Of a stretch of DNA of 56,727 nt, positions 2,360 to 21,828 are shown piece by piece. Each line of letters starts with the position of its first letter. The first letter of the stretch is position 1. The position numbers were made by a program, and so were the translations under genes. Origin of the DNA: Candidatus Hodarchaeota archaeon (GTDB lineage: Archaea > Asgardarchaeota > Odinarchaeia > Odinarchaeales > JBHLKK01); NCBI GenBank assembly GCA_048886745.1, contig JBHLKK010000004.1, positions 1 to 56,727 on the forward strand, read 5' to 3'. Below the pieces are notes generated by a model that was not told where the DNA came from, ran no database searches, and saw nothing but the letters and a program-made list of their open reading frames with translations.

Positions 2360-2365
2360 TAATCC

Positions 2366-3760
2366 ATGGTGTTCGAATTGGCAGTAGATAAGGTTTTTGT
2401 AATAGGCCTGGATTCTGCATCGCCTGAGCTATTGTTTGATAAATTCATAGATGGAATGCCCAATGTAAGAAGACTTCTAGATAAGTCAATTTACGGACCG
2501 ATGGAGAGTTGCATACCTGCAATTACAATACCCGCTTGGATGGTTATGGCTACTGGGAAGACTCCTGGCGAATTAGGACTATACGGATTCCGTCACAGAA
2601 AGATGGGTACTTATAACAAAGTTTGGATCGCACAAAGAAAGCTGATCAAAGAAAAAGCAATTTGGGACTATCTAGGTGAAAAACGTTTGAAATCGGTTTT
2701 GGTGGGAATACCACCCTCATACCCCCCAAGACCTATCAATGGTTGTCTTATCTCATGCTTCATAACACCTGATGCATCTGTTAATTACACTTATCCTGTG
2801 GATTTGAAACAAGAAATCAAATCGCTAGTTGGCGATTACATATTTGACGTAACTTATCGTAAAGAAGAACGTGGAGAAGTATTGGACGATATTTTGGAGA
2901 TGACTAAGCAACATTTCGAAGTTGTTCGATATCTGGCTGAAGAAAAGGAGTGGAGCTACTTCGAATTTGTAGAGATTGGCCTTGATCGACTACATCATGC
3001 GTTTTGGAGATATTTTGATGAAATGCATCATCTGCACGTAGCTGATGCCAAATATAAGAACGTTATTCGGGACTACTACTGGTTGCTCGATAGGGAAATA
3101 GGTTCTATTATTAAATCTCTAGATGGTGATACTGCTGTAATTATAGTTTCGGATCATGGGATAAAACGAATGAAAGGCGCTTTTGCTATTAATCAGTGGC
3201 TTATTGAGAGAGGTCTGCTGAAAATAAGAAATCCCAAGATTCTCAGAACCAAAAAGCAAGTCAGATTCGAAGATCTTGACGTTGATTGGGGCTCGACTGT
3301 GGCTTGGGCGTGGGGAGGTTATTACTCACGAGTCTTTCTCAATATTGAGGGCCGAGAGCCAAAGGGCATAATAACTCAAAATGAATATGAAGAAGTAAAG
3401 AATGAAATCGCAGACCAGATAAAGCAAATAACAGGACCCAATGGTGAGAGATGGGATACCGCAGTTTATTATCCGGACAGCATATATCCTAGGGCTATTG
3501 GTGACAAACCAGATATGATGGTTTATTTGGACAATCTATCGTGGCGTGCTGCAGGAACTCTGGGATACGACTCAGACTACCTGTCTGAAAATGATTTAGG
3601 TCCAGATGACGCGGTTCATTCAAGATACGGCGTCTTTGCTATACATACACCTGAGATGGATTCCTCAAAGCCTACATCGATTTCGATATACGACTACGCA
3701 CCAACCGTCTTGAGTTTGTTTAATATTAAAGAGGAATTTCGGGGGAAGAGCATTATATGA
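2366..3760 (+). CDS. Alkaline-phosphatase-superfamily protein (nucleotide pyrophosphatase/COG3379-like, Thr nucleophile)
   Basis: VIGLDSA, ESCIPAITIPAW, DRLHHAFW, IVSDHG, DDAVHSRYG. Confidence 0.9.
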   Translation: MVFELAVDKVFVIGLDSASPELLFDKFIDGMPNVRRLLDKSIYGPMESCIPAITIPAWMVMATGKTPGELGLYGFRHRKMGTYNKVWIAQRKLIKEKAIWDYLGEKRLKSVLVGIPPSYPPRPINGCLISCFITPDASVNYTYPVDLKQEIKSLVGDYIFDVTYRKEERGEVLDDILEMTKQHFEVVRYLAEEKEWSYFEFVEIGLDRLHHAFWRYFDEMHHLHVADAKYKNVIRDYYWLLDREIGSIIKSLDGDTAVIIVSDHGIKRMKGAFAINQWLIERGLLKIRNPKILRTKKQVRFEDLDVDWGSTVAWAWGGYYSRVFLNIEGREPKGIITQNEYEEVKNEIADQIKQITGPNGERWDTAVYYPDSIYPRAIGDKPDMMVYLDNLSWRAAGTLGYDSDYLSENDLGPDDAVHSRYGVFAIHTPEMDSSKPTSISIYDYAPTVLSLFNIKEEFRGKSII

Positions 3761-4275
3761 GCTTTGTAATCTGGTTAACAGGACCTAGTGGTGCTGGTAA
3801 AACAGTGTTAGCCGATACTCTGGAAAGGAGACTCAAAGGAGTGGGCTACCGGGCAGAAGTTTTGGATGGAGATATGGTGCGTCATAAGTTGTATCCCGAC
3901 ATAGGTTTCAGCAAGGAAGCTAGAAGAATGCATAACAGAGTGGTCATTCACATGGCAAAACTACTCTCCAGAAATGGAGTTATTGTTATTATATCCTTAA
4001 TATCTCCATATCGTGAAATCCGAGACTATGCTCGTCAGGAGCTTTCCAGATTTATCGAAGTATATCTCAAATGTCCTCTTGATGTAAGAATACAAAGAGA
4101 TCCCAAGGGACTTTATGCGAAGGCTATAAGTGGTGAAATCAAGGGTCTCACAGGTTATGATGGTGCTTACGAAGAACCGGAGAATCCAGAAGTGATTTTG
4201 GATACTCATAAGATGAGTGTTGATCAAGAAGCAGATCTTGTAATAGGCAAAGCAACAGAATTCGGCTATCTCTGA
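3757..4275 (+). CDS. cysC: Adenylylsulfate (APS) kinase
   Basis: IWLTGPSGAGKT P-loop, LDGD, SLISPYR, RDPKGLY, YEEPENPE. Overlaps the upstream stop (ATGA), consistent with translational coupling. Confidence 0.96.
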   Translation: MSFVIWLTGPSGAGKTVLADTLERRLKGVGYRAEVLDGDMVRHKLYPDIGFSKEARRMHNRVVIHMAKLLSRNGVIVIISLISPYREIRDYARQELSRFIEVYLKCPLDVRIQRDPKGLYAKAISGEIKGLTGYDGAYEEPENPEVILDTHKMSVDQEADLVIGKATEFGYL

Positions 4276-4295: not shown

Positions 4296-5411
4296 TCAAC
4301 CAAAAACAGCTTCCTTTAGAATCTCAAAATATTTTCTTGAAAGATTCTTCCAATCGTATTCAGTGGCTAGCTTTAAAGCAGCTTTTCCAAGTCGTCCTGC
4401 AAGCTTCTCATCAGACAACACCTTAGTAATCGCACCTGGTATCTCCTTTGGGGTACTTACTAAGAATGCATTCTCGTTATGTCTAAATCCCTCCAGCTCA
4501 AGATACCCCCTAAAACCAATCACCGGTCGGCCGCAAGCGCACCATTCCCAGATTTTCAATGCACCGCCATTAAATGGCAGAATACAAACGTCCGCTAATC
4601 TTACATAGCGAGGAATCTCCTCATGAGGTAGCGCCCCTGTAATAATGACTTGCTTATCAACATTGAGTCTCTTTGCCAGTTTTCTAATGCGATGAACATC
4701 ATCACCATCACCGACAAGTAGCAAGTAAAGGTCTGAAATCTTTTTGGAGGCTGTCTTTAAAGCATAAACAAGCCTAGATAGACTATACATCTTGGCGATT
4801 TTTCCATGATAAAAAGCAATTTTTCCCCTTATACCGAGTTTTTCTTTTAACTCATCGATCTCCTTTCTATGCGCAGAAGAAGGAGGCGTGAAAAGCGTGT
4901 TATCTACACCATCAGAGATTGCCGTAACTTTCTCTTTGCCAAAACCTTGCCTAAGTAGTTGATGTCTAAGTCCGACAAAGTTTGTAATAACTCTGTCAGC
5001 TTTTCTCAAAATTGTATTCTCAAGAAAACGAACTGTAATATACTTCAGTTTTTGATTTCTCCTGAAGTATTCAAAAGCAGGACTGCCGATTAGCGCATCT
5101 CCCCAATCTGCCACCCAAGGAATTTCTCCGATTTTACCAACCAAATATCCAATAGGTGCCATATACGGGAAGTATGTCAAGATTAAGTCCACATCTTTCC
5201 GCTGTCTTACAGACTTAACTATGTTTTTGAGGATGGCCAAACCATAACCGGCGTAGTATCCAAGTTGACGGGACGGAATAATCTTCTTATTTTCGATTTC
5301 TGCTCCCATTTTCTCAAAGTAACTGTTAAAAATCGTCCAACGAGCAGTTGGTTGATGAATCTTACCGTGTCTTAACACCCATGTTTCAGTACTGTAGCAA
5401 ACTATTCTCAT
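4296..5411 (-). CDS. GT4 family glycosyltransferase
   Basis: GT-B pattern: ISDGVD, FYHGKI, LLLVGDG, ITGALPHEEIPRYVRLADVCILP, ACGRPVI. Confidence 0.9.
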   Translation of the reverse strand: MRIVCYSTETWVLRHGKIHQPTARWTIFNSYFEKMGAEIENKKIIPSRQLGYYAGYGLAILKNIVKSVRQRKDVDLILTYFPYMAPIGYLVGKIGEIPWVADWGDALIGSPAFEYFRRNQKLKYITVRFLENTILRKADRVITNFVGLRHQLLRQGFGKEKVTAISDGVDNTLFTPPSSAHRKEIDELKEKLGIRGKIAFYHGKIAKMYSLSRLVYALKTASKKISDLYLLLVGDGDDVHRIRKLAKRLNVDKQVIITGALPHEEIPRYVRLADVCILPFNGGALKIWEWCACGRPVIGFRGYLELEGFRHNENAFLVSTPKEIPGAITKVLSDEKLAGRLGKAALKLATEYDWKNLSRKYFEILKEAVFG

Positions 5412-6084
5412 TGTTGATTACCTAATTGCTAGGTATTCCTATAATCCTTTCCTTCGGTTTTCAATCGACCTTCCAAAGTAATGGTCTAAATTCTTATTAT
5501 AATATTGATTTGTAATTCATTTAGATTACCATAACAGCCTTAAGACGTTGATTCTTACTCCAATGATGACTAATTTAAAGACAGTAATTTGATTTCTTTT
5601 GTATCTTACCAATATTCTTTGCTTTATTTTTGTCAATGTCCTTAGTTTTATTTACTATGAAGTTGTTGGTGAGAATTCAGCGAAAGTCACAAAATTAGCT
5701 GTATTCATAAGAAAGTGTAAAATACAGAACTGAGCAATATCTTAAACTTGAACTTTGATCACCGTAATATTACCAGCTAATACAAGCTCGTGCCATCTCT
5801 AAGGATCCTAGAAAAACATAAAATTCCTATATCGGAAGCCATTGACTACACCACTCGAAAACTTTAAGATTAACATCAACGCATTGGGCCTACGGATAAC
5901 GAGGATATCTGCTAGGCTTTCCTAGCTTTGGAGGCTGTAAACTAATTCAATAAAAAACAAAAATCATCATCAATTCAAATCACCCTAGCTTCTCTCCCTT
6001 CGGTCACTTCACCCAAATCATTCCCTTTGGTCAGGACTTCGTTTAATCCGGAATCGTCATACTAAATGTTTGGCTAAGATATAA

Positions 6085-6747
6085 TTGAAAGGAGAAAATA
6101 AGATGAATAAAACGACAAAGCAAATGGAAAAATGGATTGGAGAATTCGGTAAGGAATATACTGACCGAAATCTTCTTACACTTGAGGAGTTGGAAGCACT
6201 CTACCAAAAGAACTTTGGACTTACTCGAACAGAGATGAATCTTGAATTCATTGGGGATTTAGAGCGTTCCATCCGCATTCTCGAAGTAGGCTCAAACATC
6301 GGCAATCAGTTATTTTGCCTGCAAAATATGGGTTTTCAGTCACTATATGGCATTGAACTTCAAAAATACGCTATTGAACTATCCAGTAAATCAAGAACTA
6401 ATCATATAACTATCATCCAAGCTTCTGCGCTCAACATTCCGTACAAAGACGACTCCTTTGACTTAGTATTCACTTCTGGACTCCTTATTCACATTGCACC
6501 ATCAGATGTTGAACAGGTCCTAAGGGAGATATATCGATGCACAAAAAAATATATTTGGGGATTCGAATATTTCGCTGACAGCTATACAGAAGTAGAGTAC
6601 CGCGGGAATATTGAATTGTTATGGAAAGCCAACTTTGCCAATATATACCTTAATAGTTTTAGCGATTTACGATTGGTTAAAGAAAAAAGGTTCAAATATT
6701 TGGACAATAACAATGTGGATTCAATGTTTCTACTCAAAAAAGAATGA
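6085..6747 (+). CDS. Class I SAM methyltransferase, pseudaminic-acid-biosynthesis-associated type
   Basis: WIGEFGKEYTDRN, ILEVGSNIG, FDLVFTSGLLIHI, VEYRG...LWKANFA. These match the Pse-associated methylase family as I recall it. Confidence 0.82.
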   Translation: MKGENKMNKTTKQMEKWIGEFGKEYTDRNLLTLEELEALYQKNFGLTRTEMNLEFIGDLERSIRILEVGSNIGNQLFCLQNMGFQSLYGIELQKYAIELSSKSRTNHITIIQASALNIPYKDDSFDLVFTSGLLIHIAPSDVEQVLREIYRCTKKYIWGFEYFADSYTEVEYRGNIELLWKANFANIYLNSFSDLRLVKEKRFKYLDNNNVDSMFLLKKE

Positions 6748-6806
6748 TCCCATACTCCGTAAAGAATAACAAATAAGTATATAGTCACTTTTGAAGATGA
6801 AAAAGG

Positions 6807-7493
6807 ATGTCGTCAAGCCAAGAGGAGACCAAAATTGGTGTAATAGTTAGAACACGTAATTCTGTAAAACTTGTAAAAAATGCAGTAAATAGTGTGTTAA
6901 ATCAGACCCTTCCGAAGGAATTATGTGAGCTGGTAGTTGTAGATGACGGTTCTATTGACAACACTAGAGAAGTACTAAGGTCATATAAAGATAGAATAAA
7001 AGTAATCGAAGAGAAGAACTTGGGACATATAAGGGCTGCTAATCTGGGTATATTGCATTCAGGAAGCGAATATGTAACACTACTTGATGCTGACGATACC
7101 TTTGAGCCAACGATTCTTAAAGAGATGCTAGAAGTTTTAGAAAACGACAAAAACATAGGGTTTGTATATTGTGACTATTATGAGAGAAATCTAGAAACTG
7201 GCGAGATGAGGGTAGTATCTCTTAAAGACAATATCTTCGATAGTGTAGCGGGTGGAATAATATTTAGAAAATCGATTCTAATAGAATTTGGACTCTACGA
7301 TGAATCTCTTGTGTTCCCAGAATATGATTTGTTAATTAAGATTATGAAAAAATATAAAGGAATTCACATACCTAAACCTCTTTTTACGTACAATAGACAC
7401 CCTTGCAGTTTGACTGCAAACAAAATGCTGGTCAAAAAAGGGTTAAAGCAACTTTTTGACAAGTACGGTGAGATTAGGATCAGAAAATATTAG
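6807..7493 (+). CDS. GT2 family glycosyltransferase
   Basis: VVVDDGSIDNT, NLGHIRAANLGI, LLDADD. Confidence 0.9.
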   Translation: MSSSQEETKIGVIVRTRNSVKLVKNAVNSVLNQTLPKELCELVVVDDGSIDNTREVLRSYKDRIKVIEEKNLGHIRAANLGILHSGSEYVTLLDADDTFEPTILKEMLEVLENDKNIGFVYCDYYERNLETGEMRVVSLKDNIFDSVAGGIIFRKSILIEFGLYDESLVFPEYDLLIKIMKKYKGIHIPKPLFTYNRHPCSLTANKMLVKKGLKQLFDKYGEIRIRKY

Positions 7494-7498
7494 GGTAA

Positions 7499-8260
7499 TT
7501 GGTGTTTAATATGGGTGTGATACGAAAATCGGAGTGGGATAGTGAACATTTTGGAATAAAAGTAGGAAGATATATGCCCCACACGATTGATGATGTCCTT
7601 CCGGATATAGATTTCGCCAAAAATGATGATTATGATCTGCTTATAGCAAGAATTAGAACAGATCAGGTTGGTTTGATTAATGAAATAGAAGAAACTAAGT
7701 TCAAATTGAAGGATGCTATAGTTGAATACATATTGAATTTAGATAATGTAGAGTTTTTTGAACATAAGGGTAGTTTTAAGATACGAAAAGCAACCGAACA
7801 CGACGTCGAACATGTTAAAACAATAGCTTATGATTCCTTTAAGGATTACATAGGACATTTCCATAAGAATATGGCTCTTAATAGGAAAAAATGTGACGAA
7901 CTCTACGTAAAGTGGGCCGAAAATTCCATTAGAGACAAGAATGTGGCTGACGTAGTCTTTATCGCAGAAAACAAGGAATACAAACTAGGTTTTGGTACTG
8001 TAAAAACCATCTCAGATGAAGAAAGTAGAGGTGTACTTTTTGGAACCACTCCGGAAGCACGTGGGAGGGGTGTATATACTGAACTACTAAAAGAAGCCAT
8101 AAATTGGAGTAAACGCAAAATGTCGAAGTTATTCGTATACGGTACTCAGATAAATAACTATATAGCTCAAAATGTGTTAATAAAACTGGGATTCAAGATT
8201 CTTAGCTCATTTTATACTTTCCATCTTTGGATTAAAGATTTGGACAAGAACAAAAAATAA
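7499..8260 (+). CDS. GNAT N-acetyltransferase (WecD/PseH-like sugar amine acylase)
   Basis: SEWDSEHFG N-terminus, IRKATEHD, acetyl-CoA motif A PEARGRGVYTELL, TQINNYIAQ...LGF. Located in the nonulosonate locus. Confidence 0.82.
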   Translation: MVFNMGVIRKSEWDSEHFGIKVGRYMPHTIDDVLPDIDFAKNDDYDLLIARIRTDQVGLINEIEETKFKLKDAIVEYILNLDNVEFFEHKGSFKIRKATEHDVEHVKTIAYDSFKDYIGHFHKNMALNRKKCDELYVKWAENSIRDKNVADVVFIAENKEYKLGFGTVKTISDEESRGVLFGTTPEARGRGVYTELLKEAINWSKRKMSKLFVYGTQINNYIAQNVLIKLGFKILSSFYTFHLWIKDLDKNKK

Positions 8261-8283
8261 TCAGAAAGATGAACTTATGAAAA

Positions 8284-8509
8284 TTGAAAAATGAACTAAA
8301 TAATTTCTATGAAAGGAAAATAATCTCTGTAACTGGCAGAGTTAACTCTAAAGTCAGTGAGATTGCGAAATGACTTTTACAGTTTAAGACAAAAACATGG
8401 AAGTTTTAGATATTAGTGAATCAGGGTTATTTGCTTTGGATCGTCTGCAGAAGCACGTGGGAGAGGCATATATTCTGAATTACCAAAAGAAACTACTAAT
8501 TGATGTAAG
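8284..8509 (+). pseudogene. Chimeric remnant: degenerate 4,6-dehydratase N-terminus joined to a degenerate GNAT fragment
   Basis: Translates (with stops and a frameshift) as FYERKIISVTGRVNSKVSEIAK*LLQFKTK/NMEVLDISESGLFAL, versus FKGKRILITGGIGSIGLEII...VRVLDINETALFEL of ORF 12607-13632. Segment 8450-8509 matches 8054-8113 at 47/60 nt by manual alignment. Confidence 0.8.
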
Positions 8510-8540
8510 TACAATCGGCATTTGAACATCTTTCACCATC

Positions 8541-9572
8541 CTATATCATCTCCCAAGTGATCCATTCATCTTCTTCGATGTCTCTTTTAGCGTTTTTCCC
8601 AATCATAATGTTAATAAACTTTGGCTTAATTCCGTACCCTGGTCTCTTAATTATCAACATATCCCTCGTTATTCTTGTACCTTTCGGAATATCACATTTA
8701 GCATGGATGCTTCTTCTTGCCTTCTTATATATCTCCTTTCTCTCTATTTCGGATTTATCCTTTATTCCGTTACCCTTAGCATTCTCGACGTCCTTAATCC
8801 ATCTTATCATGTCTCTTAATTCATTTGGTTCAACTGCAAAAGAGTGATCTGGACCACGCAGCGTTCTATCCAATGTAAAATGCTTTTCAATAACACAAGC
8901 TCCCATTGCTACTGCTGCGATTGAGATATGAATCCCCAAAGTATGATCTGAAAACCCAATTGGTACTCTGAACGCATTCTTCATAGTTTCTATTGCCCTC
9001 AGATTAACGATATCAACTGGTGTAGGGTATAATGAACTGCAATGTAATAGTATTATATCATCGTTTCCAACAGATTTTACCGTGTTTTCAGCGTCCTCTA
9101 TTTCCCCAAGGTTGGCCATGCCTGTAGATATAATTACTGGTTTACCTTTCTCCGCTACATATCTTATGAGCTCTAAGTCAACGATTTCAAATGATGCAAT
9201 CTTGAACGCATGGACATATCTATCAAGAATGTCAACAGCTTCAAAATCAAATGCAGATGCTAAAAAGCCTACGTCTCTTTTCTTACAGTATTCAGCAAGC
9301 TCTTTTATCCATTCCCTTGGTGTTTCAATACTCTTAATTAATTCATACACGTTTTGACCCTTTAAATAACTAAACTCTGGTGTTTTTTTCGAGTAAAGGG
9401 TCTCAGCCTTAAATATCTGAAATTTGACTATATCCGCACCAGCTTCGACAGCAACGTCAATTAGTTTCTTTGCCTGTTCCAGGTTGTTATTGTGATTTGA
9501 GCCTGCTTCCGCTATTACTAAGCAAGGTTCTCCGTTCCCAACCAGTTGGTTTCCAATTCTAACCTTTTTCAT
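8541..9572 (-). CDS. neuB: Nonulosonic acid synthase (NeuB/PseI/LegI family) with C-terminal SAF domain
   Basis: VIAEAGSNH, GADIVKFQ, FKIASFE, IISTGMA, LLHCSSLYP, GFSDHT, IEKHFTLD, KRPGYGI. Confidence 0.95.
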   Translation of the reverse strand: MKKVRIGNQLVGNGEPCLVIAEAGSNHNNNLEQAKKLIDVAVEAGADIVKFQIFKAETLYSKKTPEFSYLKGQNVYELIKSIETPREWIKELAEYCKKRDVGFLASAFDFEAVDILDRYVHAFKIASFEIVDLELIRYVAEKGKPVIISTGMANLGEIEDAENTVKSVGNDDIILLHCSSLYPTPVDIVNLRAIETMKNAFRVPIGFSDHTLGIHISIAAVAMGACVIEKHFTLDRTLRGPDHSFAVEPNELRDMIRWIKDVENAKGNGIKDKSEIERKEIYKKARRSIHAKCDIPKGTRITRDMLIIKRPGYGIKPKFINIMIGKNAKRDIEEDEWITWEMI

Positions 9573-10254
9573 TTTTTCCCTTCCTACTCATCAAGAGTTC
9601 TGCTAGTTCAAAATCTATGTAATCGTTAATATCAATCGATTCAAATTTTCCCATTTTTAAGAAACCAGTCTTTCCCCCTACTAGAGTATTCTCCTTCATT
9701 AAAAGATCTCTTTTACACATGTAAACCGATCCGTTCTCTTTTAACAATGGTTTAATAAATTGCCTATTTCTCAATATCCTTGGATACAACCTTTCATATT
9801 TCCCGCTTTTCTCAATCCAATAGTGTCCCCGGTCTTCAACAACGCTCAAAACTGAATCGAAGTCTCCCTCTTTTAATATTTTTATTGCTTCAGAAATTCT
9901 TTCAGGTCTTAACAATGGAGAAGTAGCGTATAGCAGAACTATTATATCTGGTTTATAATTCTCATTTTCCTCCAAGTGTTTCACAGCATGCTGTAAGACA
10001 GGTAGGGTTGGGATTTCATCTTCAGCAAGTTCTTCTGGCCTTATGAATGGAACCTCCGCTCCATGTTTCTTAGAAATCTCAGCAATTTCCCTATCTTCAG
10101 TAGATACTATGATTCTATCTAATTCCTTTACCTTTAGGGCAGTTTCTATTATGTGAGCTAAGAGCGGTTTCCCGAAGAATCTCTTAATATTCTTCCTAGG
10201 GATCCCTTTTGAACCACCTCTTGCTGGAATTACAGCAATAACTCTCACCGTCAT
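9559..10254 (-). CDS. neuA: CMP-nonulosonate synthetase (NeuA/PseF family cytidylyltransferase)
   Basis: IAVIPARGGSKGIPRKNI, VSTED, PFIRPEELAED, ENGSVY, SIDINDYIDF. Confidence 0.95.
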   Translation of the reverse strand: MTVRVIAVIPARGGSKGIPRKNIKRFFGKPLLAHIIETALKVKELDRIIVSTEDREIAEISKKHGAEVPFIRPEELAEDEIPTLPVLQHAVKHLEENENYKPDIIVLLYATSPLLRPERISEAIKILKEGDFDSVLSVVEDRGHYWIEKSGKYERLYPRILRNRQFIKPLLKENGSVYMCKRDLLMKENTLVGGKTGFLKMGKFESIDINDYIDFELAELLMSRKGKNEKG

Positions 10255-10441
10255 ATCACCCCATAATCAAAGAAGAATAGATAACTTTCTGTTTCTATAA
10301 TAACCTTGCCTAAAATCTCTGTATGTAATACCTTCAAAAGTTTTCATCTTTTTTAATCATCCGTAAGCTGTTCATCCACAATTGACCATGCGCAATTTAT
10401 GATTCTTTAACATGTTGAAAGTAAGTTACTTCTCACAAGTC

Positions 10442-11596
10442 TCATTTTAATTCTTCAATAGACTTCTTTATGGCGTCAATTACCTCCCGAATCTGTTCTT
10501 CGTTCATCTTTGGAAACAATGGTAATGTAATAATCCTATTAAAAACCTGCTCAGTTACTGGAAAATTCTCAGGGCTAAAACTGAAGTGTTTTCTATAATA
10601 CGAGAAGCGGTAGATTGGGATATAGTGAACATTTACTCCGATATTCTTTTCCCTCATTTTACTAAAGAAGGCATCTCTATCTAAGTTATTTAACAAAGTT
10701 GTGTAAATGTGCCAAACATGCTTAACATTGGGTCTAACAACAGGGACCTCAAATTCGGGTATGTCTCCTAGAATTTCATTGTACCTTTTCGCAATTTCAC
10801 TCCTTCTCCTTATGAATAAATCAAGCTTCTTTAACTGAGAGAGGCCTAAAGCTACCTGAAAATCTGTAATTCTATAATTCCTGCCGAGATATTTCAAATC
10901 ATATGCCCAACCCGCCTTTGGACCAAATCTCTCCAAGGCGCTCTTATCTATACCATGATTCCTTAACATCTTCAATTTATCATAAAACTCTTCATTGTTT
11001 GTGGTGATAACCCCTCCCTCACCTGTTGTTATATGCTTCACAGGATGAAAACTAAATACAGTTGTATCTGCAGAGTTTCCTATCTTTTTTCTGTTATATT
11101 CCGCACCAAGTGCATGACATGCGTCTTCAACAAGGTATAAATTATGCTCATCCGCAATTTCCCTTATTTTGCTTATATCGCATGGATGACCAGCGTAATC
11201 CACGTATATGATTGCCTTTGTTTTATTGCCCAGTTTCTTCTCAATCTCATCTGGATTTATGTTCCTGGTCTCCTTTTGTATATCGGTAAACACAGGTTTT
11301 AAACCATTGAAAAGTATGGCGTTTGATGTTGCTGCAAAAGTGAAAGGAGTTGTGATGACCTCAGAGCCTCTTGGCAGATCCAAAGCTTGAACAGCTATGT
11401 CCAGAGCCGCTGTTCCCGAGCTAACGGCAACTGCATACTTACATCCAATGTACTTACATAATGTATTCTCAAATTCGTCAATTTTCGATCCGCTAGTTAT
11501 CCAGTTGCCTTTCAAGACCTCTATAACTTCTTCGACATCCCCCTCATCTATCCAATGCAAACCGTAAGGTATAAACTTGGAGGCCATCCTGAACAC
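10442..11596 (-). CDS. pseC: PLP-dependent sugar aminotransferase, PseC-like (DegT/DnrJ family)
   Basis: FIPYGLHWID, AVSSGTAAL, VEDACHALGA, FSFHPVKHITTGEGG, LGRNYRITD. Confidence 0.85.
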   Translation of the reverse strand: MFRMASKFIPYGLHWIDEGDVEEVIEVLKGNWITSGSKIDEFENTLCKYIGCKYAVAVSSGTAALDIAVQALDLPRGSEVITTPFTFAATSNAILFNGLKPVFTDIQKETRNINPDEIEKKLGNKTKAIIYVDYAGHPCDISKIREIADEHNLYLVEDACHALGAEYNRKKIGNSADTTVFSFHPVKHITTGEGGVITTNNEEFYDKLKMLRNHGIDKSALERFGPKAGWAYDLKYLGRNYRITDFQVALGLSQLKKLDLFIRRRSEIAKRYNEILGDIPEFEVPVVRPNVKHVWHIYTTLLNNLDRDAFFSKMREKNIGVNVHYIPIYRFSYYRKHFSFSPENFPVTEQVFNRIITLPLFPKMNEEQIREVIDAIKKSIEELK

Positions 11597-11653
11597 TACC
11601 CCCTCGATGTATTGTTGTTTTAGTCTAATAATTCGCCTCTATCGATTTTCTGC

Positions 11654-12595
11654 TTAATCTCTCTGTTCAACAACTTCCTTTTCAATCCATTTTTTTGTTT
11701 TTTCAATTCCTTCTTCTAAGGGTGTCTTAGGCTCCCATCCCAGTAACCTTTTTGCTTTTCTGCAGTCACATACTAATTTATAGATCTCACTTTGAGGATG
11801 GTGATGCTCAAAGTATCGTATTTTCCTGGGGTCTTTGCAGATCAACAACGCTAATTCCCTTATTGCGATATCCTTACCAAAACCAGCATTTATTACTTCC
11901 CCAACGGCTTTATCTGAAACCATTGCTCGATCTATGAACTCTACACAGTCTTCAACGTAGAGGAAATCTCTTGTCTGTGTTCCGTCACCAGAAACATTGA
12001 GCATCTGCCCATCGAGAAAAGCCTTTATAAATATGCTTATGACTCCTCCCTCCATATCACTCTTCTGATATGGACCGTAAGTATTAAATGGTCTCGTAAT
12101 TACAATAGGTAGGCCATAAGCATGAAAATATGATAAAGCTAAATTTTCTGCTGCCAACTTTGAAGCAGCATAGGGAGATTTAGGCTTTAAACGGTGTTCT
12201 TCGTTAATGGGTTTTGATAGAACTAAATCATACACCATGCAAGTCCCTATTAAAACTACCTTCACATTTCTTTTCCTTGCTTCCTCTAAAATATTAAAAG
12301 TTCCATTCAAATTTACCTCATAATATCTCTGTGGATTTTCTATGCTCTCTTGAACATCTATTGCCGCGGCAGCATGAATACAAATATCAATATCTTTAAA
12401 AATCCCCTCCAAGACTTCTCTATTTCTTATGTTTCCTAAAATGAATCTAAACTTGGAGTTGTCTTTAAAATCTTCAAGGTTTTTCATTTGACCATTAGAA
12501 AGATCATCCAAAACACATACTCTTTGTCCCTTATCTAACAGCTTTTTTACTACCCATCTTCCAATAAATCCCGCTCCACCAGTTACAAGTATCAC
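11654..12595 (-). CDS. NAD-dependent sugar-nucleotide epimerase/dehydratase
   Basis: VTGGAGFIG, SPYAASK (YxxxK), RPFNTYGP, RDFLYVED. Confidence 0.93.
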   Translation of the reverse strand: MILVTGGAGFIGRWVVKKLLDKGQRVCVLDDLSNGQMKNLEDFKDNSKFRFILGNIRNREVLEGIFKDIDICIHAAAAIDVQESIENPQRYYEVNLNGTFNILEEARKRNVKVVLIGTCMVYDLVLSKPINEEHRLKPKSPYAASKLAAENLALSYFHAYGLPIVITRPFNTYGPYQKSDMEGGVISIFIKAFLDGQMLNVSGDGTQTRDFLYVEDCVEFIDRAMVSDKAVGEVINAGFGKDIAIRELALLICKDPRKIRYFEHHHPQSEIYKLVCDCRKAKRLLGWEPKTPLEEGIEKTKKWIEKEVVEQRD

Positions 12596-12606
12596 TTATA
12601 ATCTCC

Positions 12607-13632
12607 TCATAGCAAACTCTCTTTTTGCAGGAACTTCCTTATCTCTTCTTTGGAAAGCGGTTTTATGTCTTTGGATGAATATGCATTAATATCACCTTGA
12701 AGGAATTGAGGATAAAAAGATTTGTCAACACGTGATAAGCTCTCCATCTCTGGAAGAAGAATAAACATGTCTTTATTTTCTAAGATTCTGCTTGCTTCAT
12801 ACTCAGTCACTAACGCCTCATGCAATTTCTCGCCAGGTTTTGATCCTATTACCTTTATCTCAACATCAGTGGGAGAGTACCCATAGACTGAGGCCAGCTC
12901 CTCGATCATAACCTCAGCTAGATCCGATATTCTTATCACGCTCATCTTGAAAATAAAAATCTCACCTCCTTGTGCTAACTCTACTGCTTTAAGGAGTAAA
13001 TAGATAGCCTTCCGCATAGGCATAATGAATCTAGTCATATCTCCATCGGTTATGGTTATCGGTCCTCCCATCTCGATTTGCCTCTTAAACAATGGGATCA
13101 CAGAACCTCTTGAACCAAGAACATTCCCGAATCTTATGCTTGAAAAAACGGTCTTCCTCGCACCTTTATAATAATTCGCAGAAGTAATTAATCTCTCCGC
13201 TAAAAGCTTTGTAGCCCCCATCACGTTGGTAGGACTAACCGCTTTGTCGCTGCTTGTAAAGATAAGTTTTTCGACTTCTTCTTCGATACAAGAATCAATT
13301 ATGTTTTGCGTACCAATTACATTGGTTTTTATACTCTCAAATGGATTATACTCACAAATCTCAACATGCTTAAGAGACGCTGTATGAAGTACTATGTCAA
13401 TGTTCTCTATGGCAAATCTTACCCTACTTTTATCACGAATATCGCCTAGTAAAACTCTCAGATTAGAGTAATTCTTAAGCTCTTCTTTTAATTCAAACAA
13501 CGCAGTCTCATTTATATCTAATACCCTAACAACTTCTGGATCATGCTTCAATATCTCGTTAATAATCTCCAAGCCTATTGAACCAATTCCACCCGTAATC
13601 AAAATCCTCTTACCTTTAAATACGCCGCTCAT
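12607..13632 (-). CDS. UDP-HexNAc 4,6-dehydratase (CapD/FlaA1/PglF-like, soluble)
   Basis: ITGGIGSIG, ASLKHV, YNPFESIKTNVIGT, SSDKAV, MGATK, RFGNVLGSRGSV, MTRF, GEKLHE. Confidence 0.92.
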   Translation of the reverse strand: MSGVFKGKRILITGGIGSIGLEIINEILKHDPEVVRVLDINETALFELKEELKNYSNLRVLLGDIRDKSRVRFAIENIDIVLHTASLKHVEICEYNPFESIKTNVIGTQNIIDSCIEEEVEKLIFTSSDKAVSPTNVMGATKLLAERLITSANYYKGARKTVFSSIRFGNVLGSRGSVIPLFKRQIEMGGPITITDGDMTRFIMPMRKAIYLLLKAVELAQGGEIFIFKMSVIRISDLAEVMIEELASVYGYSPTDVEIKVIGSKPGEKLHEALVTEYEASRILENKDMFILLPEMESLSRVDKSFYPQFLQGDINAYSSKDIKPLSKEEIRKFLQKESLL

Positions 13633-13977
13633 ACAACCACTTCATTTTAGAGATAATTGTAGTTAAATCTCTTAACTCTAAAAAACCTATTTAAAAATTC
13701 CTGAGGATTCCTTTTGCCTATCTTAGTGAGGCTCATCATTTTTTCTATTAATTACATCCCAAACATCATATTTACGCCCACTTGGAAGAGTACTATATGA
13801 TTGTGCCAATCTACACAGGAATTGGGCTAGACTGGGATATTATCTACTCTCTATTCTACATGCCATTTCATAAACAGAATTTGTGTAAATCGATAAACAT
13901 ATAGGCTACTTTCATTGAAAACAAACTACTTGCATTTTCTATGAGATTCAATCTAAAATTCTGTGGAGTTTGCCTTA

Positions 13978-13995
13978 GGGAAAATTATTTAAGCT
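13978..13995 (+). promoter_or_regulatory. Putative BRE-TATA element of the flippase gene
   Basis: GGGAAAATTATTTAAGC (purine run followed by a TTTA[A/T]A-like box) about 50 nt upstream of ATG 14043. Confidence 0.35.
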
Positions 13996-14042
13996 ATCAC
14001 ATGTTGGTTCTTCCAATATTAATACGTGGTATTACATAACGT

Positions 14043-15515
14043 ATGGGGAAAGTTGTTAAGGTGTCAGAATACAGAGAGTTCGCAAAAAACATCGGGACAA
14101 CTGCTATTGGGCAAATGTTGGTATATTTAGGCGGGATTCTGTTATTACTAATGCTAACAAAGACTCTAGGTGCAGGGGACTATGGTTTATGGGTGCAGGT
14201 TGAGGTTACCGTTTCTCTTCTAACAATTATATCGGGGCTTGGATTACCTTATGCGCTAAATCGCTTTCTTGTCTCCGAGAGAGATCCAAATAAGGTTAGA
14301 GACATATTTTATTCTACAGTTTCATTTACACTTGCATCAACAATACTTTTATCGATTTTCTTATTCATTTTTTCCTCTAGCTTCGCAAATTTGTTCTTTG
14401 ATGGAAATCAGGAAGTGGTTTTAATCGCTGCAATCATTGCCCCTATACGGGCATTGTGGTGGTCATATCTTAATTATTTTAGGGCCTTCCGTGAAATGGA
14501 TAGGTACACTCTCATAACGGTTTCTCAGAGATACGGTGTTATTGTCTTGAGCTCTCTTTTTATCTTCGTAGGATATGGTTTAATCGGCGTTGTTTCCACT
14601 TTGATCATATCTTACACGGCCACGCTGCTGATTTTGGCATATTTGGTAATAAGACGTATCGGGCTAGAAAAACCTGCATTCGTTGGATTAGGAAAACGAT
14701 TGAGATTTAGCCTACCTGCTGTGCCAGGTGCACTATCTTTTTGGGTAGTAGATGTAAGTGATCGTTACGTTATAGGAGCATTATTGGGCGCCGTTTTTTT
14801 AGGATACTACTCTTCCGCATACGTCATTGGAAGCATTTCTATTTTTGCTAGCTCCATTTTAGGTTTAATTCTCATTTCAACACTCTCAAAACTTTATGAT
14901 GAAGGAAAAATGACTGAACTCAAAAACCATATGACTTATTCCCTAAAGCTTTTCTTGATGGTGAGTATTCCTCTAATATTCGGAAATATGGCGCTATCCA
15001 AACCTATACTAACAGTCTTATCGACAGCTGAAATTGCGAATTATGGCTACATGGTGGCAACAGTCACTTCCATAGGAACAGTGTTCTTCGGCGTACAAAG
15101 TATCTTTGCTCAAATATTGGTTGTAGTGAAAAAGACTGAGATAGTTGCATCAATATGGGGAATTTCCGCTTTGGTGAATCTAGCGCTTGCATTGAGCTTA
15201 GTGGTATTTCTGGGCGTCATAGGGGCAGCAATAGCCACTTTAACCTCGTACCTCATAGCGTGCTTTCTTACCACCTACTTCTCATCGAAAATACTTACCT
15301 TCGAAATAGATCTAAAATTCATCGCGAAATGCATTCTCTCTTCACTTGTTATGTATGGGGTTATCTCTCTATTCTCTCCAATTGGAGCCGTACAAACATT
15401 TCTTGTAATCCTTTTTGGAGTAGGGATATATTTCTTCATGCTAATCGTTTTTAGAGGATTTAAAAAGGGAGAAATTAACTTTGTCAAAAACCTGGTTAAG
15501 TCGCTGGGACGATAG
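14043..15515 (+). CDS. Oligosaccharide flippase (Wzx/AglR-like, MOP superfamily)
   Basis: About 14 hydrophobic segments, LTKTLGAGDYGL, LRFSLPAVP, VSDRYVIGALLG...LGYYSSAY, GAAIATL. Confidence 0.92.
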   Translation: MGKVVKVSEYREFAKNIGTTAIGQMLVYLGGILLLLMLTKTLGAGDYGLWVQVEVTVSLLTIISGLGLPYALNRFLVSERDPNKVRDIFYSTVSFTLASTILLSIFLFIFSSSFANLFFDGNQEVVLIAAIIAPIRALWWSYLNYFRAFREMDRYTLITVSQRYGVIVLSSLFIFVGYGLIGVVSTLIISYTATLLILAYLVIRRIGLEKPAFVGLGKRLRFSLPAVPGALSFWVVDVSDRYVIGALLGAVFLGYYSSAYVIGSISIFASSILGLILISTLSKLYDEGKMTELKNHMTYSLKLFLMVSIPLIFGNMALSKPILTVLSTAEIANYGYMVATVTSIGTVFFGVQSIFAQILVVVKKTEIVASIWGISALVNLALALSLVVFLGVIGAAIATLTSYLIACFLTTYFSSKILTFEIDLKFIAKCILSSLVMYGVISLFSPIGAVQTFLVILFGVGIYFFMLIVFRGFKKGEINFVKNLVKSLGR

Positions 15516-15630
15516 TTGTTGGAGAAAAACAACACATTTAGATATGCATTTGGTTGCGATCCCCTAAAAATGTATGAAAAATCATGAATCTATTAGTATA
15601 ATGGGGTGATACCAACTAGTCAAGGGTAAG

Positions 15631-16842
15631 CTAGTGCCTAGGTGGTGATTTGCTTATTATCTTCAATATGGCTCTAGCTACACGTAAAGATGCATTTCCA
15701 TCTAATCGGTACAAATGCTTACGTATATTCTCTTTATAATCGACACTTAAACTCTTTATAAAATCTGGTGGGTCCTGCGCAAAGTCCCTCAACCCTTCAA
15801 TCGTGTCGATGGTTGCACCCAAGCTTTTGAGCAGATTAACATATGGGAATTTAGCAATATCTATAATAACCAGTGGTTTTTTATATACAAGAGCAGTTAA
15901 GCCCGAGGTTGACTGAAATGTGCTAACAATTTCTGCGTTAAAAACTAGGCCTGCCAGTTCATGCTTTGGACTGGTTATTATCACTCTGTCTGGATATTTG
16001 TTGATAAATCGCGTGTATTTGCCTGTGTCCTCTCTTGGGTGAGGTTTTATTATCAGCTGATACTCGCTGTTAAGATTTCCAATCAAAGCTTCTAATATAT
16101 TAATATACTTGTTAAGACTACATATGTTGTCCTCAACTAGTGTTTGTGACAATAGAAGAATTTTTTTCTTTGTTTGATCCAATCTCGGAATGTTATCCAG
16201 CTTGTGAGACAGCATCTCACTAGACGCTGATCTAACTATTTCGTCTAGCAGCACATACCCATACACTACTACTTTGTGAGGTGGAACACTTCTTTTTATC
16301 ATAAGTTCTTTATAATAATCACCCATTACGGCTACTAAATCCGTTCCGCCTAACCCCCACTCAAGGACCCTTACTTTCCAGCGTATTAGGACGAGAATCT
16401 TTGAGATCAGACGGTTTCTTATAATTCTTGAGAATAAACGCCACAAAAAATATCTTCTCCATCTAAAAATGGATTTGATGCTCTTTCGCACTTCTTCCGA
16501 TAACATACCTACCTGAACCGCTATTACAGGTATACTCCTTAGAAGAGCTAATTTAACAATAAAGGCGTTTATCCCGCCATCATCACCAACTATTATAATG
16601 TCTGGACTTTTTTCTTCTAGAATTTTTTTTGCAGTAATTATGCGGTTATCCCCTACAAAACCCTTCAATATACCGGGCTTCCTGTAAGCTTTATCATGTT
16701 CCAATCTATACGTATTAATCATTTCACATTTTACTTTGTCTGCAGAAATTTCTGTTAGTTCTTTAGCAATACTCTTTGATATCCTTACGCTATTTGGACA
16801 TCCTGCTACAAATAGAACCCTGTAAAGATTCAATTTTTGCAC
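15631..16842 (-). CDS. GT-B fold protein, candidate nonulosonate (sialyl-type) transferase
   Basis: PDIIIVGDDGG, DLVAVMG, VVVYGYVLLD, LIIKPHPRE, STFQSTSGLTALVYKKPLV. Adjacent to NeuA/NeuB genes and the flippase. Confidence 0.65.
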   Translation of the reverse strand: MQKLNLYRVLFVAGCPNSVRISKSIAKELTEISADKVKCEMINTYRLEHDKAYRKPGILKGFVGDNRIITAKKILEEKSPDIIIVGDDGGINAFIVKLALLRSIPVIAVQVGMLSEEVRKSIKSIFRWRRYFLWRLFSRIIRNRLISKILVLIRWKVRVLEWGLGGTDLVAVMGDYYKELMIKRSVPPHKVVVYGYVLLDEIVRSASSEMLSHKLDNIPRLDQTKKKILLLSQTLVEDNICSLNKYINILEALIGNLNSEYQLIIKPHPREDTGKYTRFINKYPDRVIITSPKHELAGLVFNAEIVSTFQSTSGLTALVYKKPLVIIDIAKFPYVNLLKSLGATIDTIEGLRDFAQDPPDFIKSLSVDYKENIRKHLYRLDGNASLRVARAILKIISKSPPRH

Positions 16843-16864
16843 CTCTCTTGATTAAAAATGCTAA

Positions 16865-17300
16865 AGATCTATTATACGTCAGTCAAATGATTTTATCAAA
16901 ACGCATGTGGGTCTAAACCTTATAAATGTTGACTTCAAGACTTTAGAAAAATTCTTGATATGTTATGAGTAGGGGTAATATCTTCAATGCTGAATTGATG
17001 CACATCGCTGAGCCTAGCAAATATAATAGTCCTTGTGTCTTGTTCTTTTCTGGCAAATCCTTTTGACCGACCTATTATGTCTCCCATGGAGAAATATGAA
17101 GTTATAATCGGAACAATTATGATTAACTAGGGGTCCAACTCAATGTAAGCTGATCTACTTTTGTAGGAAACTCACCCAAAATAACCGAGAATATTCAACC
17201 CCAGCACTGCTATTGAAGTGACAGCTCCAAAAAGCAGCCGAACGATTATTAACGGAGAAGGTATCGCCAAGACTACCAATAATGGCATCAATATAATACC
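16865..17300 (-). pseudogene. Chimeric remnant: GT2 C-terminus fused in frame to the last ~45 codons of a membrane-protein paralog
   Basis: 17300-17046 gives GIILMPLLVVLAIP...LGYFG*VSYKSRSAYIELDP*...GDIIGRSKGF, versus GFLILMPLLAILSIP...LGYLGWIYYKSRIANIDLDLK...GGIIGRLKGF of ORF 20822-21811. A 24-nt block at 16916-16939 is identical to 18364-18387. Confidence 0.85.
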
Positions 17301-17500
17301 AATATCAATTTGCTGATGTACTCCATGCATGAGTACAATTGTATAGGATTATCCTAAATCTTATTGTTACCGGGCTTATGGCTGACAATTCTCTAAGGAA
17401 TCTTAAAACCTACTTTACACCAAAGACGGTGTAACGGTCCTCTTACATAAAGCTTATAATAGGTGATGAGAGCTAAAAATAAATACGATTCATAGGAAGA

Positions 17501-18193
17501 GTGGTGGTAGGAATAAAGCTGACCAGTTTTATCCCAGATTTCCTTAAGCCAGTATTAAGGCGAATTCATATGATGTATAAAAGAATGACTAGTCCTTCCC
17601 CACTAACTCGAGGTAAACTTCATGAGTATTGGAAGAAACCTTGGGATGGTAACAATCTTCCAGAAAGCTATTTACGGGGGGAGGAAAAAAGCAAATTTCT
17701 GGTTGAGATCGTGAAGAAATATTCTACTTCAAATGCAAAGATTCTTGAGATTGGCTGCAATGTTGGTAGAAATTTGAACTATCTATTTCTTAATGGTTTT
17801 AAAAACTTGGAAGGTATAGAGATAAGTGATGAAGCAGTGCAATTATTGAAACATACTTATCCCGAAATGGAACGCCATACCAAAATCCATAACGCGGCAG
17901 TTGAAGAAATAATAAGAGAATTTAGAGATTATGAATTCGATATCGTGTTTACTATGGCTGTTCTCGAGCACGTGCATCCAGACAGTGAATGGATATTTTC
18001 TGAAATAGTTCGGATAACGAATCATATTTTGGTTACCATTGAAGATGAGTATGCAGCAAGTTGGAGGGCATTCCCGCGCAATTATAAGAGAGTCTTTACG
18101 CATCTTGGGATGAAACAAATAGAGGATATTAATTGTGGTGAAATAGATGGATTGGGTGATAGTTTCTTTGCAAGAATTTTTAAGAGAAGATAA
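17501..18193 (+). CDS. Class I SAM-dependent methyltransferase
   Basis: KILEIGCNVGRNL, EGIEIS, FDIVFTMAVLEHVHP. Confidence 0.9.
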   Translation: MVVGIKLTSFIPDFLKPVLRRIHMMYKRMTSPSPLTRGKLHEYWKKPWDGNNLPESYLRGEEKSKFLVEIVKKYSTSNAKILEIGCNVGRNLNYLFLNGFKNLEGIEISDEAVQLLKHTYPEMERHTKIHNAAVEEIIREFRDYEFDIVFTMAVLEHVHPDSEWIFSEIVRITNHILVTIEDEYAASWRAFPRNYKRVFTHLGMKQIEDINCGEIDGLGDSFFARIFKRR

Positions 18194-18342
18194 TCTATTT
18201 TTAATATTTGAGATTATTCTGCTTTGATCGAATGGACCTTAGTTTCACATGCATTGACTGCCACAAGAGAGTGAATCCCTAAAGAGTGAATTCAAGGATC
18301 AAAATTGTTGAAGATCTATTATACACGCCTCAAATGATTTTA

Positions 18343-21811: not shown

Positions 21812-21828
21812 TTATAAGCACCGATAGT

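Follow-up and report, generated by a model that had tools for sequence, protein, structure and literature searches.

The window analysed here, a stretch of 56,727 nucleotides (nt) from Candidatus Hodarchaeota archaeon (GenBank assembly GCA_048886745.1, contig JBHLKK010000004.1, positions 1 to 56,727 of the forward strand), contains a cluster of genes for a nonulosonic acid (NulO), i.e., a sialic-acid-like sugar. We regard it as somewhat on the probable side that an Asgard archaeon acquired this cluster horizontally, as a cassette that varies between strains and would make a CMP-activated 5,7-diamino NulO of the pseudaminic acid (Pse) type and add it to a lipid-linked surface glycan. A preliminary description of the window had listed ten genes between 6085 and 16842 as a near-complete NulO biosynthesis and transfer cluster following the logic of Pse or legionaminic acid (Leg) synthesis. 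All ten open reading frames (ORFs) are confirmed there without internal stops, their Pfam and NCBIfam assignments bear out the list, and the gene identities support the Pse/Leg logic; "near-complete" is accurate as well, the UDP-sugar hydrolase step being missing. The extent, however, has to be widened: the genes lie where they were placed, but the variable unit is a 12.9-kb cassette at 5428..18364, delimited by blastn against the relative L054, which contains the entire NulO gene set. The order of the pathway genes is also kept in an ANME-1 genome, a bacterial metagenome-assembled genome (MAG) and Bacillus thuringiensis, and this conservation of gene order is far beyond chance.

In the proposed mechanism, a Pen-like and a Pal-like short-chain dehydrogenase/reductase (SDR) would convert UDP-GlcNAc through a 5,6-ene to UDP-4-keto-6-deoxy-L-AltNAc, a chemistry taken from B. 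thuringiensis; a PseC-type aminotransferase would aminate C4, and a WecD-like GNAT would presumably acylate N4. The removal of UDP is a gap to which no enzyme is assigned. NeuB would condense the free sugar with phosphoenolpyruvate (PEP), a PseF-like enzyme would convert the product to the CMP-sugar, and a Pse-associated methylase would tailor it. A membrane-associating glycosyltransferase (GT) of the GT-B type would then transfer the NulO from CMP to a glycan built by neighbouring GT2 and GT4 enzymes on a polyprenyl carrier, after which a Wzx flippase would export the glycan and AglB, an enzyme known here from relatives, would attach it to protein.

Biosynthetic genes and the predicted sugar

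The first step is assigned to the Pen-like protein of 341 amino acids (aa), a predicted UDP-GlcNAc 5,6-dehydratase of the Polysacc_synt_2-type SDRs (12607..13632, minus strand), which in a PDB search matches Pen of B. thuringiensis (6bwc) with 328.9 bits vs 224.5 for H. pylori FlaA1/PseB. The second step, leading to UDP-4-keto-6-deoxy-L-AltNAc, would fall to the Pal-like SDR of 313 aa (11654..12595, minus strand), for which Pal (6bwl) scores 329.2 bits vs 170.8 for the next PDB match. Pen and Pal jointly stand in for PseB in the CMP-pseudaminic acid pathway of B. thuringiensis (Li et al. 2015, cited through PMC5109656 and PMC8987622). The plasmid of that bacterium carries the order SDR-SDR-pseC-...-pseG-pseH-pseI, common to the Pen-Pal-PseC order of the window, and its homologues are 49% (Pen-like), 51% (Pal-like) and 49% (PseC) identical to the proteins encoded here. 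The two SDRs are clear orthologues of Pen and Pal, and their activity would be that of the B. thuringiensis enzymes; the "dehydratase" named earlier is thus the Pen orthologue, while the supposed "epimerase" is not an epimerase and is better named as the orthologue of Pal.

The motif of the Pen-like enzyme, SDK-x7-M-x3-K, has Met in place of the catalytic Tyr of Pen, a variant that is common to an ANME-1 homologue and to the bacterial locus L020, both of which have a Pal partner. Since activity is established for the Met-type dehydratases PglF and WbpM (PMC8987622), and the same Met occurs in CapE and SpsM (PMC7439481), the substitution is read as a variant rather than a defect.

The PLP-dependent aminotransferase (10442..11596, minus strand), predicted to perform the C4 amination, passes the PseC model TIGR03588 (454.6 bits; cut-off 423.5), whereas the LegC model reaches only 244.5 bits against a cut-off of 420. 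In the PDB it comes closest to ArnB and H. pylori PseC, two enzymes whose substrates are L-configured 4-uloses. The WecD-like GNAT (253 aa; 7499..8260, plus strand) is the predicted N4-acyltransferase in the role of PseH; its match is NF008212, the dTDP-4-amino-4,6-dideoxygalactose acyltransferase, at 84 bits and below cut-off, and no PseH of the TIGR03585 type is present in the cassette. This GNAT is conserved in the sister contig L036 and occupies the place after NeuB at which relatives of the cassette have a 177-aa PseH-like GNAT, a gene that is absent here. The NulO synthase NeuB with its SAF domain (8541..9572, minus strand; PF03102, 305.7 bits) overlaps by 14 nt the gene of the PseF-like CMP-NulO synthetase (9559..10254, minus strand; PF02348), which is 73-76% identical to homologues in Aenigmarchaeota and in locus L029. 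Beside PseF and NeuB in these same two places lie homologues, 54-56% identical, of the Pse-associated S-adenosylmethionine (SAM) methyltransferase (6085..6747, plus strand; probable start ATG at 6103), which scores 176.6 bits with TIGR03587 against a cut-off of 112. The cassette further encodes a short GT2 glycosyltransferase (6807..7493, plus strand; PF00535, 100.4 bits) and a flippase of the Wzx/MOP type for the lipid-linked glycan (14043..15515, plus strand; PF01943, PF03023, PF01554), the latter 65-67% identical to its counterparts in relatives vs 83-90% for the flank genes. Genes for both modifications of the "methylated and acylated NulO" announced in the preliminary description are therefore present, and the product itself is a prediction from those genes.

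A NeuB phylogeny had been suggested as a check, and a maximum-likelihood tree was built with N. meningitidis NeuB as the chosen outgroup, the characterised anchors being PseI 8h2c, SpsE and NmNeuB, with no LegI among them. The window NeuB and its 96%-identical sister fall in a clade (support 100/99) with ANME-1/Methanophagales, Aenigmarchaeota, Halobacteriota and Thermotogota, which is sister to bacterial clades containing loci with a PseG context (L016, L020). The whole group is in turn sister (89/94) to PseI of C. jejuni (8h2c), B. thuringiensis, Klebsiella and Mesorhizobium together with B. subtilis SpsE, and the NeuC-associated synthases and three other Asgard NeuBs fall outside. The check thus places the window NeuB on the PseI/SpsE side, apart from the NeuC-linked synthases. 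Because the aminotransferase passes the PseC cut-off and fails that of LegC, because its relatives use L-configured 4-uloses and because of the position of NeuB in the tree, a pseudaminic-type 5,7-diamino NulO is the best reading of the product, though not a proven one.

Cassette exchange in an Asgard host

The relative GCA_975960255.1 (L054) matches the window by blastn at 2-5427 (81.8% nt identity) and at 18365-19130 (85.9%), and between these flanks the match is limited to the flippase and GT-B genes (69% nt), which are rearranged. The cassette of this relative encodes a DegT aminotransferase family protein, an SDR, a NeuB above the TIGR03569 cut-off, a NeuC with 417 bits, an LbH acetyltransferase and PIG-L, ATP-grasp and PHP proteins. 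At the protein level, the GT-B protein and the flippase are 63-65% identical between the two genomes and the flank genes 83-90%, and the left-flank genes for 3'-phosphoadenosine 5'-phosphosulfate (PAPS) synthesis keep their order with 84% aa identity. Within the cassette, identities to ANME-1 amount to 67-74% for Pen, Pal, PseC and NeuB, those to Aenigmarchaeota to 56-76% for NeuB, PseF and the methylase, and the core genes as a whole share 67-78% with these two groups. A true NeuB was found in 3 of 40 Asgard relatives, none of them of the same genus or order, and these three proteins are 37-40% identical to the window NeuB and belong to other clades. By its gene content, the cassette is read as horizontally acquired and strain-switched and not as a part of Asgard ancestry, because its closest homologues are foreign, NeuB is rare among the relatives and a different cassette lies between the same conserved flanks. 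Moreover, since close relatives keep the flanks, the transferase and the flippase but carry a NulO cassette of the NeuC type, the terminal acidic sugar predicted from these genes would be a switchable, serotype-like trait.

At the corresponding locus of a record named Candidatus Odinarchaeia (L033, GCA_054383955.1; 12981-17705), what comes after the GT-B and flippase genes is a set of hypothetical genes, a GmrSD-like gene and fragments of split phage integrases, with no NulO cassette within 10 kb. The fragments suggest integrase-mediated turnover at the locus.

The preliminary description had considered the cluster informative on how sialylation in eukaryotes came about. This is not supported by the results: the window NeuB stands on the PseI/SpsE side of the tree, apart from the NeuC-linked synthases and from N. 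meningitidis NeuB at the root; additionally, the cassette is replaced in a relative, its homologues lie in ANME-1, Aenigmarchaeota and bacteria, and NeuB is confined to the aforementioned three relatives.

The host was examined with genes outside the cassette. A two-domain gelsolin of 201 aa (54336..54941, plus strand; PF00626 twice), which serves as the Asgard marker on the NulO contig, matches the Thorarchaeota 2DGel3 (7c2g) over its full length (residues 2-200, 149.8 bits). The family occurs in 16 of 21 genomes searched, i.e., the own genome and relatives in the phylum, vs none of 14 control genomes. The contig also carries a CTP-dependent riboflavin kinase, Fwd subunits, an archaeal A24 prepilin peptidase and Trm1, all archaeal genes, and the closest named relative is the aforementioned Odinarchaeia record, with 63-67% identity in the genes syntenic with it, those for the GT-B protein, the flippase, DUF362 and GFO among them. 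With the gelsolin, the archaeal housekeeping genes and this relative taken together, the contig is Asgard and related to Odinarchaeia, as far as these genes can tell. A placement in Hodarchaeales was also considered, but the sole close homologue bearing a name comes from Odinarchaeia, and the class assignment is kept tentative. The earlier suggestion of a probable Asgard archaeon is thereby upheld, and the counter-possibility raised with it, that the contig might not be Asgard, was examined and is answered by the gelsolin and the flanking genes. The MAG is 78% complete, leaving 22% of the genome unsampled.

Four genomes of a sister family in the same order (G003-G006, 1.3-1.4 Mb) gave no gelsolin match at E <= 0.001, unlike the genus of the window and most other families of the phylum, in which gelsolin is present.

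The GT-B protein, the missing hydrolase and alternative readings

The predicted CMP-NulO transferase is a GT-B protein of 403 aa (15631..16842, minus strand) whose close homologues are few, each about 400 aa long, one of them bearing the name Candidatus Odinarchaeia. It matches the polysialyltransferase family PF07388, though over residues 213-285 only, with 45.4 bits where the gathering score is 23.3. Its motifs are GDDGG (83-87), Q-x-G, KPHPRE (263-268) and S-T, and at least 90% of 78 representatives of the family keep D85, H265 and P266. The pair D/E-D/E-G and HP is given as the motifs of bacterial sialyltransferases by Freiberger 2007, as cited in PMC5420450, and the genetically validated Pse and Leg transferases of Tannerella forsythia carry the same two motifs (PMC5420450). 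The family model of the latter, NF046086 (BFO_1060 family), matches the C-terminal half of the window protein with 42 bits, below its 200-bit cut-off.

The fold is closest to that of another family. The top 50 Foldseek matches of the AF2 model (pLDDT 78) all belong to the UDP-GlcNAc 2-epimerase family at a TM score of about 0.6, with no sialyltransferase among them, and PF02350 (Epimerase_2) scores 26 bits, below its gathering score of 30.6. The catalytic Glu of the epimerases (HVEAGLR) is, however, replaced by an invariant Gln (AVQVGML), and this Gln motif is followed by a 54-residue cationic amphipathic insertion (14 K/R vs 3 D/E), which is the best-conserved part of the protein. Judged from the model and the alignments, the GT-B protein shares only its fold with the WecB/NeuC 2-epimerase family (PF02350).

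The wider family comprises 3,824 representatives at E <= 1e-10, and the 78 members that were scanned touch Epimerase_2 (73), TagB/F (Glyphos_transf; 62), KpsC/S (51), polyST (36) and GT52 (6). As far as is known, TagB/F, KpsC/S, polyST and GT52 all use cytidine-nucleotide donors. In two of the three other NeuB-bearing Asgard genomes, family members lie 3-7 kb from NeuB (hypergeometric P about 0.011, 40 genomes), and relatives of the GT-B protein coexist with NeuC (417 bits, L034/L054), with a PseF-PseG fusion (G008) and, in ANME-1, with a GH88-like putative PseG substitute. Between the two cassette types the C-terminal domain is 56% identical vs 72% for the N-terminal domain; in GT-B enzymes it is the C-terminal domain that usually binds the donor. 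On the strength of the motifs, the exchange of Glu for Gln, the insertion, the wider family and the occurrence beside NulO and hydrolase genes, we regard it as fairly probable that the GT-B protein is the CMP-NulO transferase.

Unrelated NulO clusters, each including a distant member of this family with a Q-H-G motif, lie in two other Asgard genomes: a Leg-like cluster in G009:C4 (L052, 8076-15568), with a CBS-SDR fusion, DegT, LbH, NeuB and a CMP-transferase and no NeuC, and a cluster in G008:C19 (L053, 3648-12639), with a PseF-PseG fusion and a pyruvyltransferase.

A hydrolase that would release the sugar from UDP was sought widely. Neither PseG, nor an Epimerase_2 protein of the NeuC/LegG type, nor a GH88-like protein was found in the window, in the sister contig L036 or in the rest of the MAG. 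A profile search of the MAG for PseG (TIGR03590) gave 13.5 bits at best, searches with PF02350 and PF07470 yielded no hydrolase homologue, and neither did tblastn, for which the queries were PseG (four), NeuC (one), GH88-like (two) and PHP (one) proteins and a PseF-PseG fusion; the fusion query matched only the PseF-like gene of the window, through its PseF half. Remnants of PseG, GH88-like or PseH-like genes were looked for in the intergenic gaps of the window and none was found. Where the cassette occurs in ANME-1, Aenigmarchaeota and L029, a GH88-like gene fills the interval from PseC to the CMP-transferase; this gene is absent here. This gene at the position of PseG may be a putative non-orthologous PseG replacement, and we know of no description of it as such. 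It encodes a six-hairpin protein of 375-382 aa (PF07470) and is found in L025 (ANME-1) at 8037-9164, in L029 at 1602-2750 and in L010 at about 7925.

Several observations weigh against the proposed pathway. The Pen-like enzyme and NeuB both score below their NCBIfam equivalog cut-offs, the latter just short of TIGR03569 (378.7 bits; cut-off 399.65) as well as of the PseI model TIGR03586 (332.9 bits; cut-off 340.25), and the best model of the PseF-like enzyme, TIGR03584, gives 168.2 bits (cut-off 205.7). AglB was not found in the MAG; it is present in 12 of 12 relatives searched, on which ground a true absence was rejected. The nearest solved structures of the GT-B protein, by fold and by profile, are 2-epimerases and not sialyltransferases. 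With the genes that were found, the encoded pathway has no way of setting free the sugar on which NeuB would act. Finally, the best solved structure for NeuB is B. subtilis SpsE, with 240.9 bits vs 199.2 for PseI. SpsE belongs to a Pse-looking enzyme set that produces legionaminic acid, and Pen and Pal can also feed that pathway (PMC7439481), so that the stereochemistry given here for the NulO is tentative. A real pathway with a product of the Leg type, or with another 5,7-diamino NulO stereoisomer, is accordingly unlikely but retains appreciable weight; besides SpsE, it draws on the higher score of TIGR03569 than of the PseI model and on the Met variant of the catalytic dyad, shared with SpsM, CapE and PglF (PMC7439481; PMC8987622). 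The outcome of the PseC and LegC models and the L-configured substrates of the nearest aminotransferases argue for Pse, as do the PseG contexts of the nearest bacterial NeuB clades and the Pse-associated family of the methylase, and the hydrolysing 2-epimerase that a Leg route needs was not found in the searches of window and MAG. The missing step might alternatively be performed by the GT-B protein itself, acting as the UDP-sugar hydrolase (PseG/LegG function), in which case another enzyme, such as the GT2 or an 822-aa membrane protein encoded next to it, would transfer the NulO. The structural matches, which include the hydrolysing NeuC/SiaA, the contact of most of the wider family with PF02350, the retained Asp of GD(D/T) and His of HP and the lack of any other hydrolase candidate in the window or in the G009 cluster speak for this possibility; nevertheless, it is rather improbable, given that the catalytic Glu is an invariant Gln, that such a hydrolase would be redundant beside NeuC in L034, the fusion in G008 and the GH88-like gene in ANME-1, that the conserved cationic amphipathic insertion hints at a function on the membrane surface and that PF07388, not PF02350, passes its gathering score.

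That a transferred cluster of the ANME-1/DPANN type lost its GH88-like and PseH-like genes, leaving in the cassette an incomplete remnant without function that makes no NulO, would fit the absence of these two genes and of any substitute hydrolase. This reading is a poor prospect: all genes are intact, a different GNAT fills the acyltransferase role, and part of the genome is unsampled. Moreover, the sister contig L036, from another sample, has the identical gene order with dN/dS of 0.14-0.39 at dS of 0.12-0.25, and the reduced architecture is thus read as being under purifying selection, not in decay. It is highly improbable that the contig is mis-binned and belongs to an ANME-1, DPANN or bacterial genome. 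The nearest homologues of NeuB, PseF, PseC, Pen and Pal do come from Aenigmarchaeota, ANME-1/Halobacteriota and bacteria, and the GC content of the cassette (0.35-0.38) is slightly below that of most of the remaining window (about 0.38-0.43 from 20 kb onward). However, the foreign affinity is confined to the 12.9-kb cassette, whose flanks are 82-86% identical in nucleotides to a relative with another cassette; the gelsolin of the Asgard 2DGel type sits on the same 56.7-kb contig, and the GT-B, flippase, DUF362 and GFO genes have their counterparts in the Odinarchaeia record, whereas the Aenigmarchaeota genome with the closest NeuB has no gelsolin. The exchanged cassette of the Pse type remains the preferred reading. 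A bolder form of it, which we hold as doubtful, is a PseG-independent Pse-type pathway in an Odinarchaeia-related Asgard archaeon, in which UDP would be released by the GT-B protein, as hydrolase and transferase in one, or by the alkaline-phosphatase-family enzyme of the flank; the GDDGG/Q-x-G/HP/S-T family would be NulO transferases acting on lipid-linked glycans, and the terminal NulO would be switched by cassette exchange at a fixed locus. If this were true, serotype-like NulO switching would occur in the closest prokaryotic relatives of eukaryotes.

Surrounding glycan genes and known systems

The wider window is a glycan locus by its annotation, with PAPS genes and glycosyltransferases on the left (1-5411) and GT2, oxidoreductase, DUF362 and membrane-protein genes on the right (17.5-25 kb). 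The conserved left flank encodes ATP sulfurylase, an alkaline-phosphatase-family protein (PF01663) and adenosine 5'-phosphosulfate (APS) kinase, a set for PAPS synthesis (1202..4275, plus strand), and ends with a GT4-type (Glycos_transf_1) glycosyltransferase (4296..5411, minus strand) that is 89% identical in L054. The alkaline-phosphatase-superfamily gene (464 aa; 2366-3760), which has no NCBIfam match, is wedged between its two neighbours with a 4-nt overlap and is 84% identical at the same position in the relative; candidate roles for it are the activation of sulfate, the removal of PAP and the cleavage of nucleotide sugars. Near the right end of the cassette lies a second SAM methyltransferase (17501..18193, plus strand; PF08241, with a weak TIGR03587 match of 46 bits), which is 91% identical in L037. 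The conserved right flank begins with the 822-aa polytopic membrane protein (18343..20811, minus strand), which has no Pfam match, ends in a C-terminal soluble domain of roughly 150 aa and is 85% identical in L034. Only three homologues of it were found in a set of 5.8 billion proteins, its gene always adjoins that of the GT-B protein, and its AF2 model (pLDDT 34.6) is unusable; it could be a lineage-specific GT-C-like enzyme. A backbone of GT2, GFO/IDH/MocA oxidoreductase, DUF362 and GT2 genes follows (20822..24892, minus strand), with identities of 83-90% to L034 and of 66-67% to the L033 record of Odinarchaeia. The intergenic gaps of the window hold no convincing small ORFs and no Rfam families. 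Just outside the glycan locus, a 1010-aa protein (26999-30031) that combines a pair of AAA domains with a Lon protease domain at the C-terminus is 88% identical in a relative.

For the priming of the glycan, a polyprenyl-phosphate HexNAc-1-P transferase of the AglH/Alg7/WecA type (33070..34053, plus strand; PF00953, 105.3 bits), assigned here to the GT4 family, is a candidate on circumstantial grounds, as it lies 15 kb from the cassette behind unrelated genes. An N-glycosylation route is plausible; neither AglB nor the PF00953 gene is linked to the cassette.

A second glycan locus is found on contig C31 of the MAG (G000, locus L055; 1447-13379), with genes for DegT, an AsnB-like amidotransferase, a FemAB-like protein, radical SAM, a WbmS-like protein, a methyltransferase, a 530-aa protein and a Wzx flippase; its PseH-like GNAT is 37% identical to that of ANME-1. 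The only sulfotransferase found (C31 4764-5579; PF13469/PF00685, PAPS-type) lies in this locus and is the likely user of the PAPS supplied by the window genes at 1202-4275. Sulfation of some glycan is therefore likely. Of the earlier proposal that the NulO glycan is possibly sulfated, the adjacency of the PAPS genes holds good; these genes, however, belong to the conserved flank, and the sulfotransferase is on C31.

If the preferred reading is correct, Asgard archaea, probably Odinarchaeia, join the organisms that encode sialic-acid-like surface sugars, and the type of sugar would be exchanged as a cassette while the flanks stay conserved, as happens at the capsule and O-antigen loci of bacteria. 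Such an exchange points to viruses, partners or predators as agents of selection on the cell surface, and it speaks against taking these NulO genes for ancestors of eukaryotic sialylation. Two leads arise, namely a Pen/Pal-type pathway that would run without a known UDP-sugar hydrolase, and a widespread GT-B family whose members are good candidates for Pse and Leg transferases. In the literature searched, no description of NulO genes in Asgard archaea was found. NulO pathways are already known in Archaea, from Halorubrum (PMC11407970) and Methanoperedens (PMC11337218), and annotation pipelines already name these genes.

The CMP-Pse pathway of B. thuringiensis (Pen, Pal, Pam/PseC, Pdi/PseH, Phy/PseG, Ppa/PseI, Pcp/PseF), as described by Li et al. 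2015 (cited in PMC5109656), resembles the window in the Pen-Pal-PseC order, in identities of 49-51%, in its NeuB-type synthase and in CMP activation. In contrast, the window has no PseG, a WecD-like GNAT of 253 aa instead of PseH and Met for the Tyr of Pen; its NeuB falls in a clade that is sister to canonical PseI, its host is an archaeon, and it has a Wzx flippase and a different transferase. The sps genes of B. subtilis (SpsM, SpsC, SpsD, SpsG, SpsE, SpsF; PMC7439481) share with the window the synthase SpsE, the best structural match of NeuB, the T/S-x9-M-x3-K motif of SpsM and the look of a Pse gene set. However, the sps set, whose product is proven Leg, employs a single dehydratase and the PseG-like SpsG, whereas the window has Pen and Pal and neither SpsG nor PseG.

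Among archaea, the legionaminic acid N-glycan of Halorubrum sp. PV6 (PMC6137143, as cited in PMC11407970) is comparable in its NeuB-family locus, CMP activation and amino-sugar tailoring, and enrichments of 'Ca. Methanoperedens', with NulOs of the Leg and Pse type (PMC11337218), likewise have archaeal NulO loci. These systems are of the Leg type and belong to Halobacteriota, while that of the window is of the Pen/Pal/PseC type, belongs to Asgard and is predicted from genes. In both of them, as in the window, the NulO is probably displayed on surface glycoproteins.

In T. forsythia (Tanf_01245/TFUB4_00887/BFO_1060; PMC5420450), close strains carry a Pse- or a Leg-type locus and, beside it, a cognate GT-B transferase marked by the D/E-D/E-G and HP motifs and by an affinity to TagB, a situation much like that of the window. 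The GT-B protein studied here scores far below the cut-off of 200 for the BFO_1060 family and is thus not a member of it. Furthermore, the T. forsythia transferases are identical in their C-terminal halves and differ in the N-terminal ones, whereas in the window protein it is the C-terminal domain that diverges more, and the bacterial system is one of O-glycosylation, while the archaeal one is probably a dolichol-linked N-glycosylation. By analogy, the Pse and Leg strains of T. forsythia are the best described parallel to the cassette switching proposed here.

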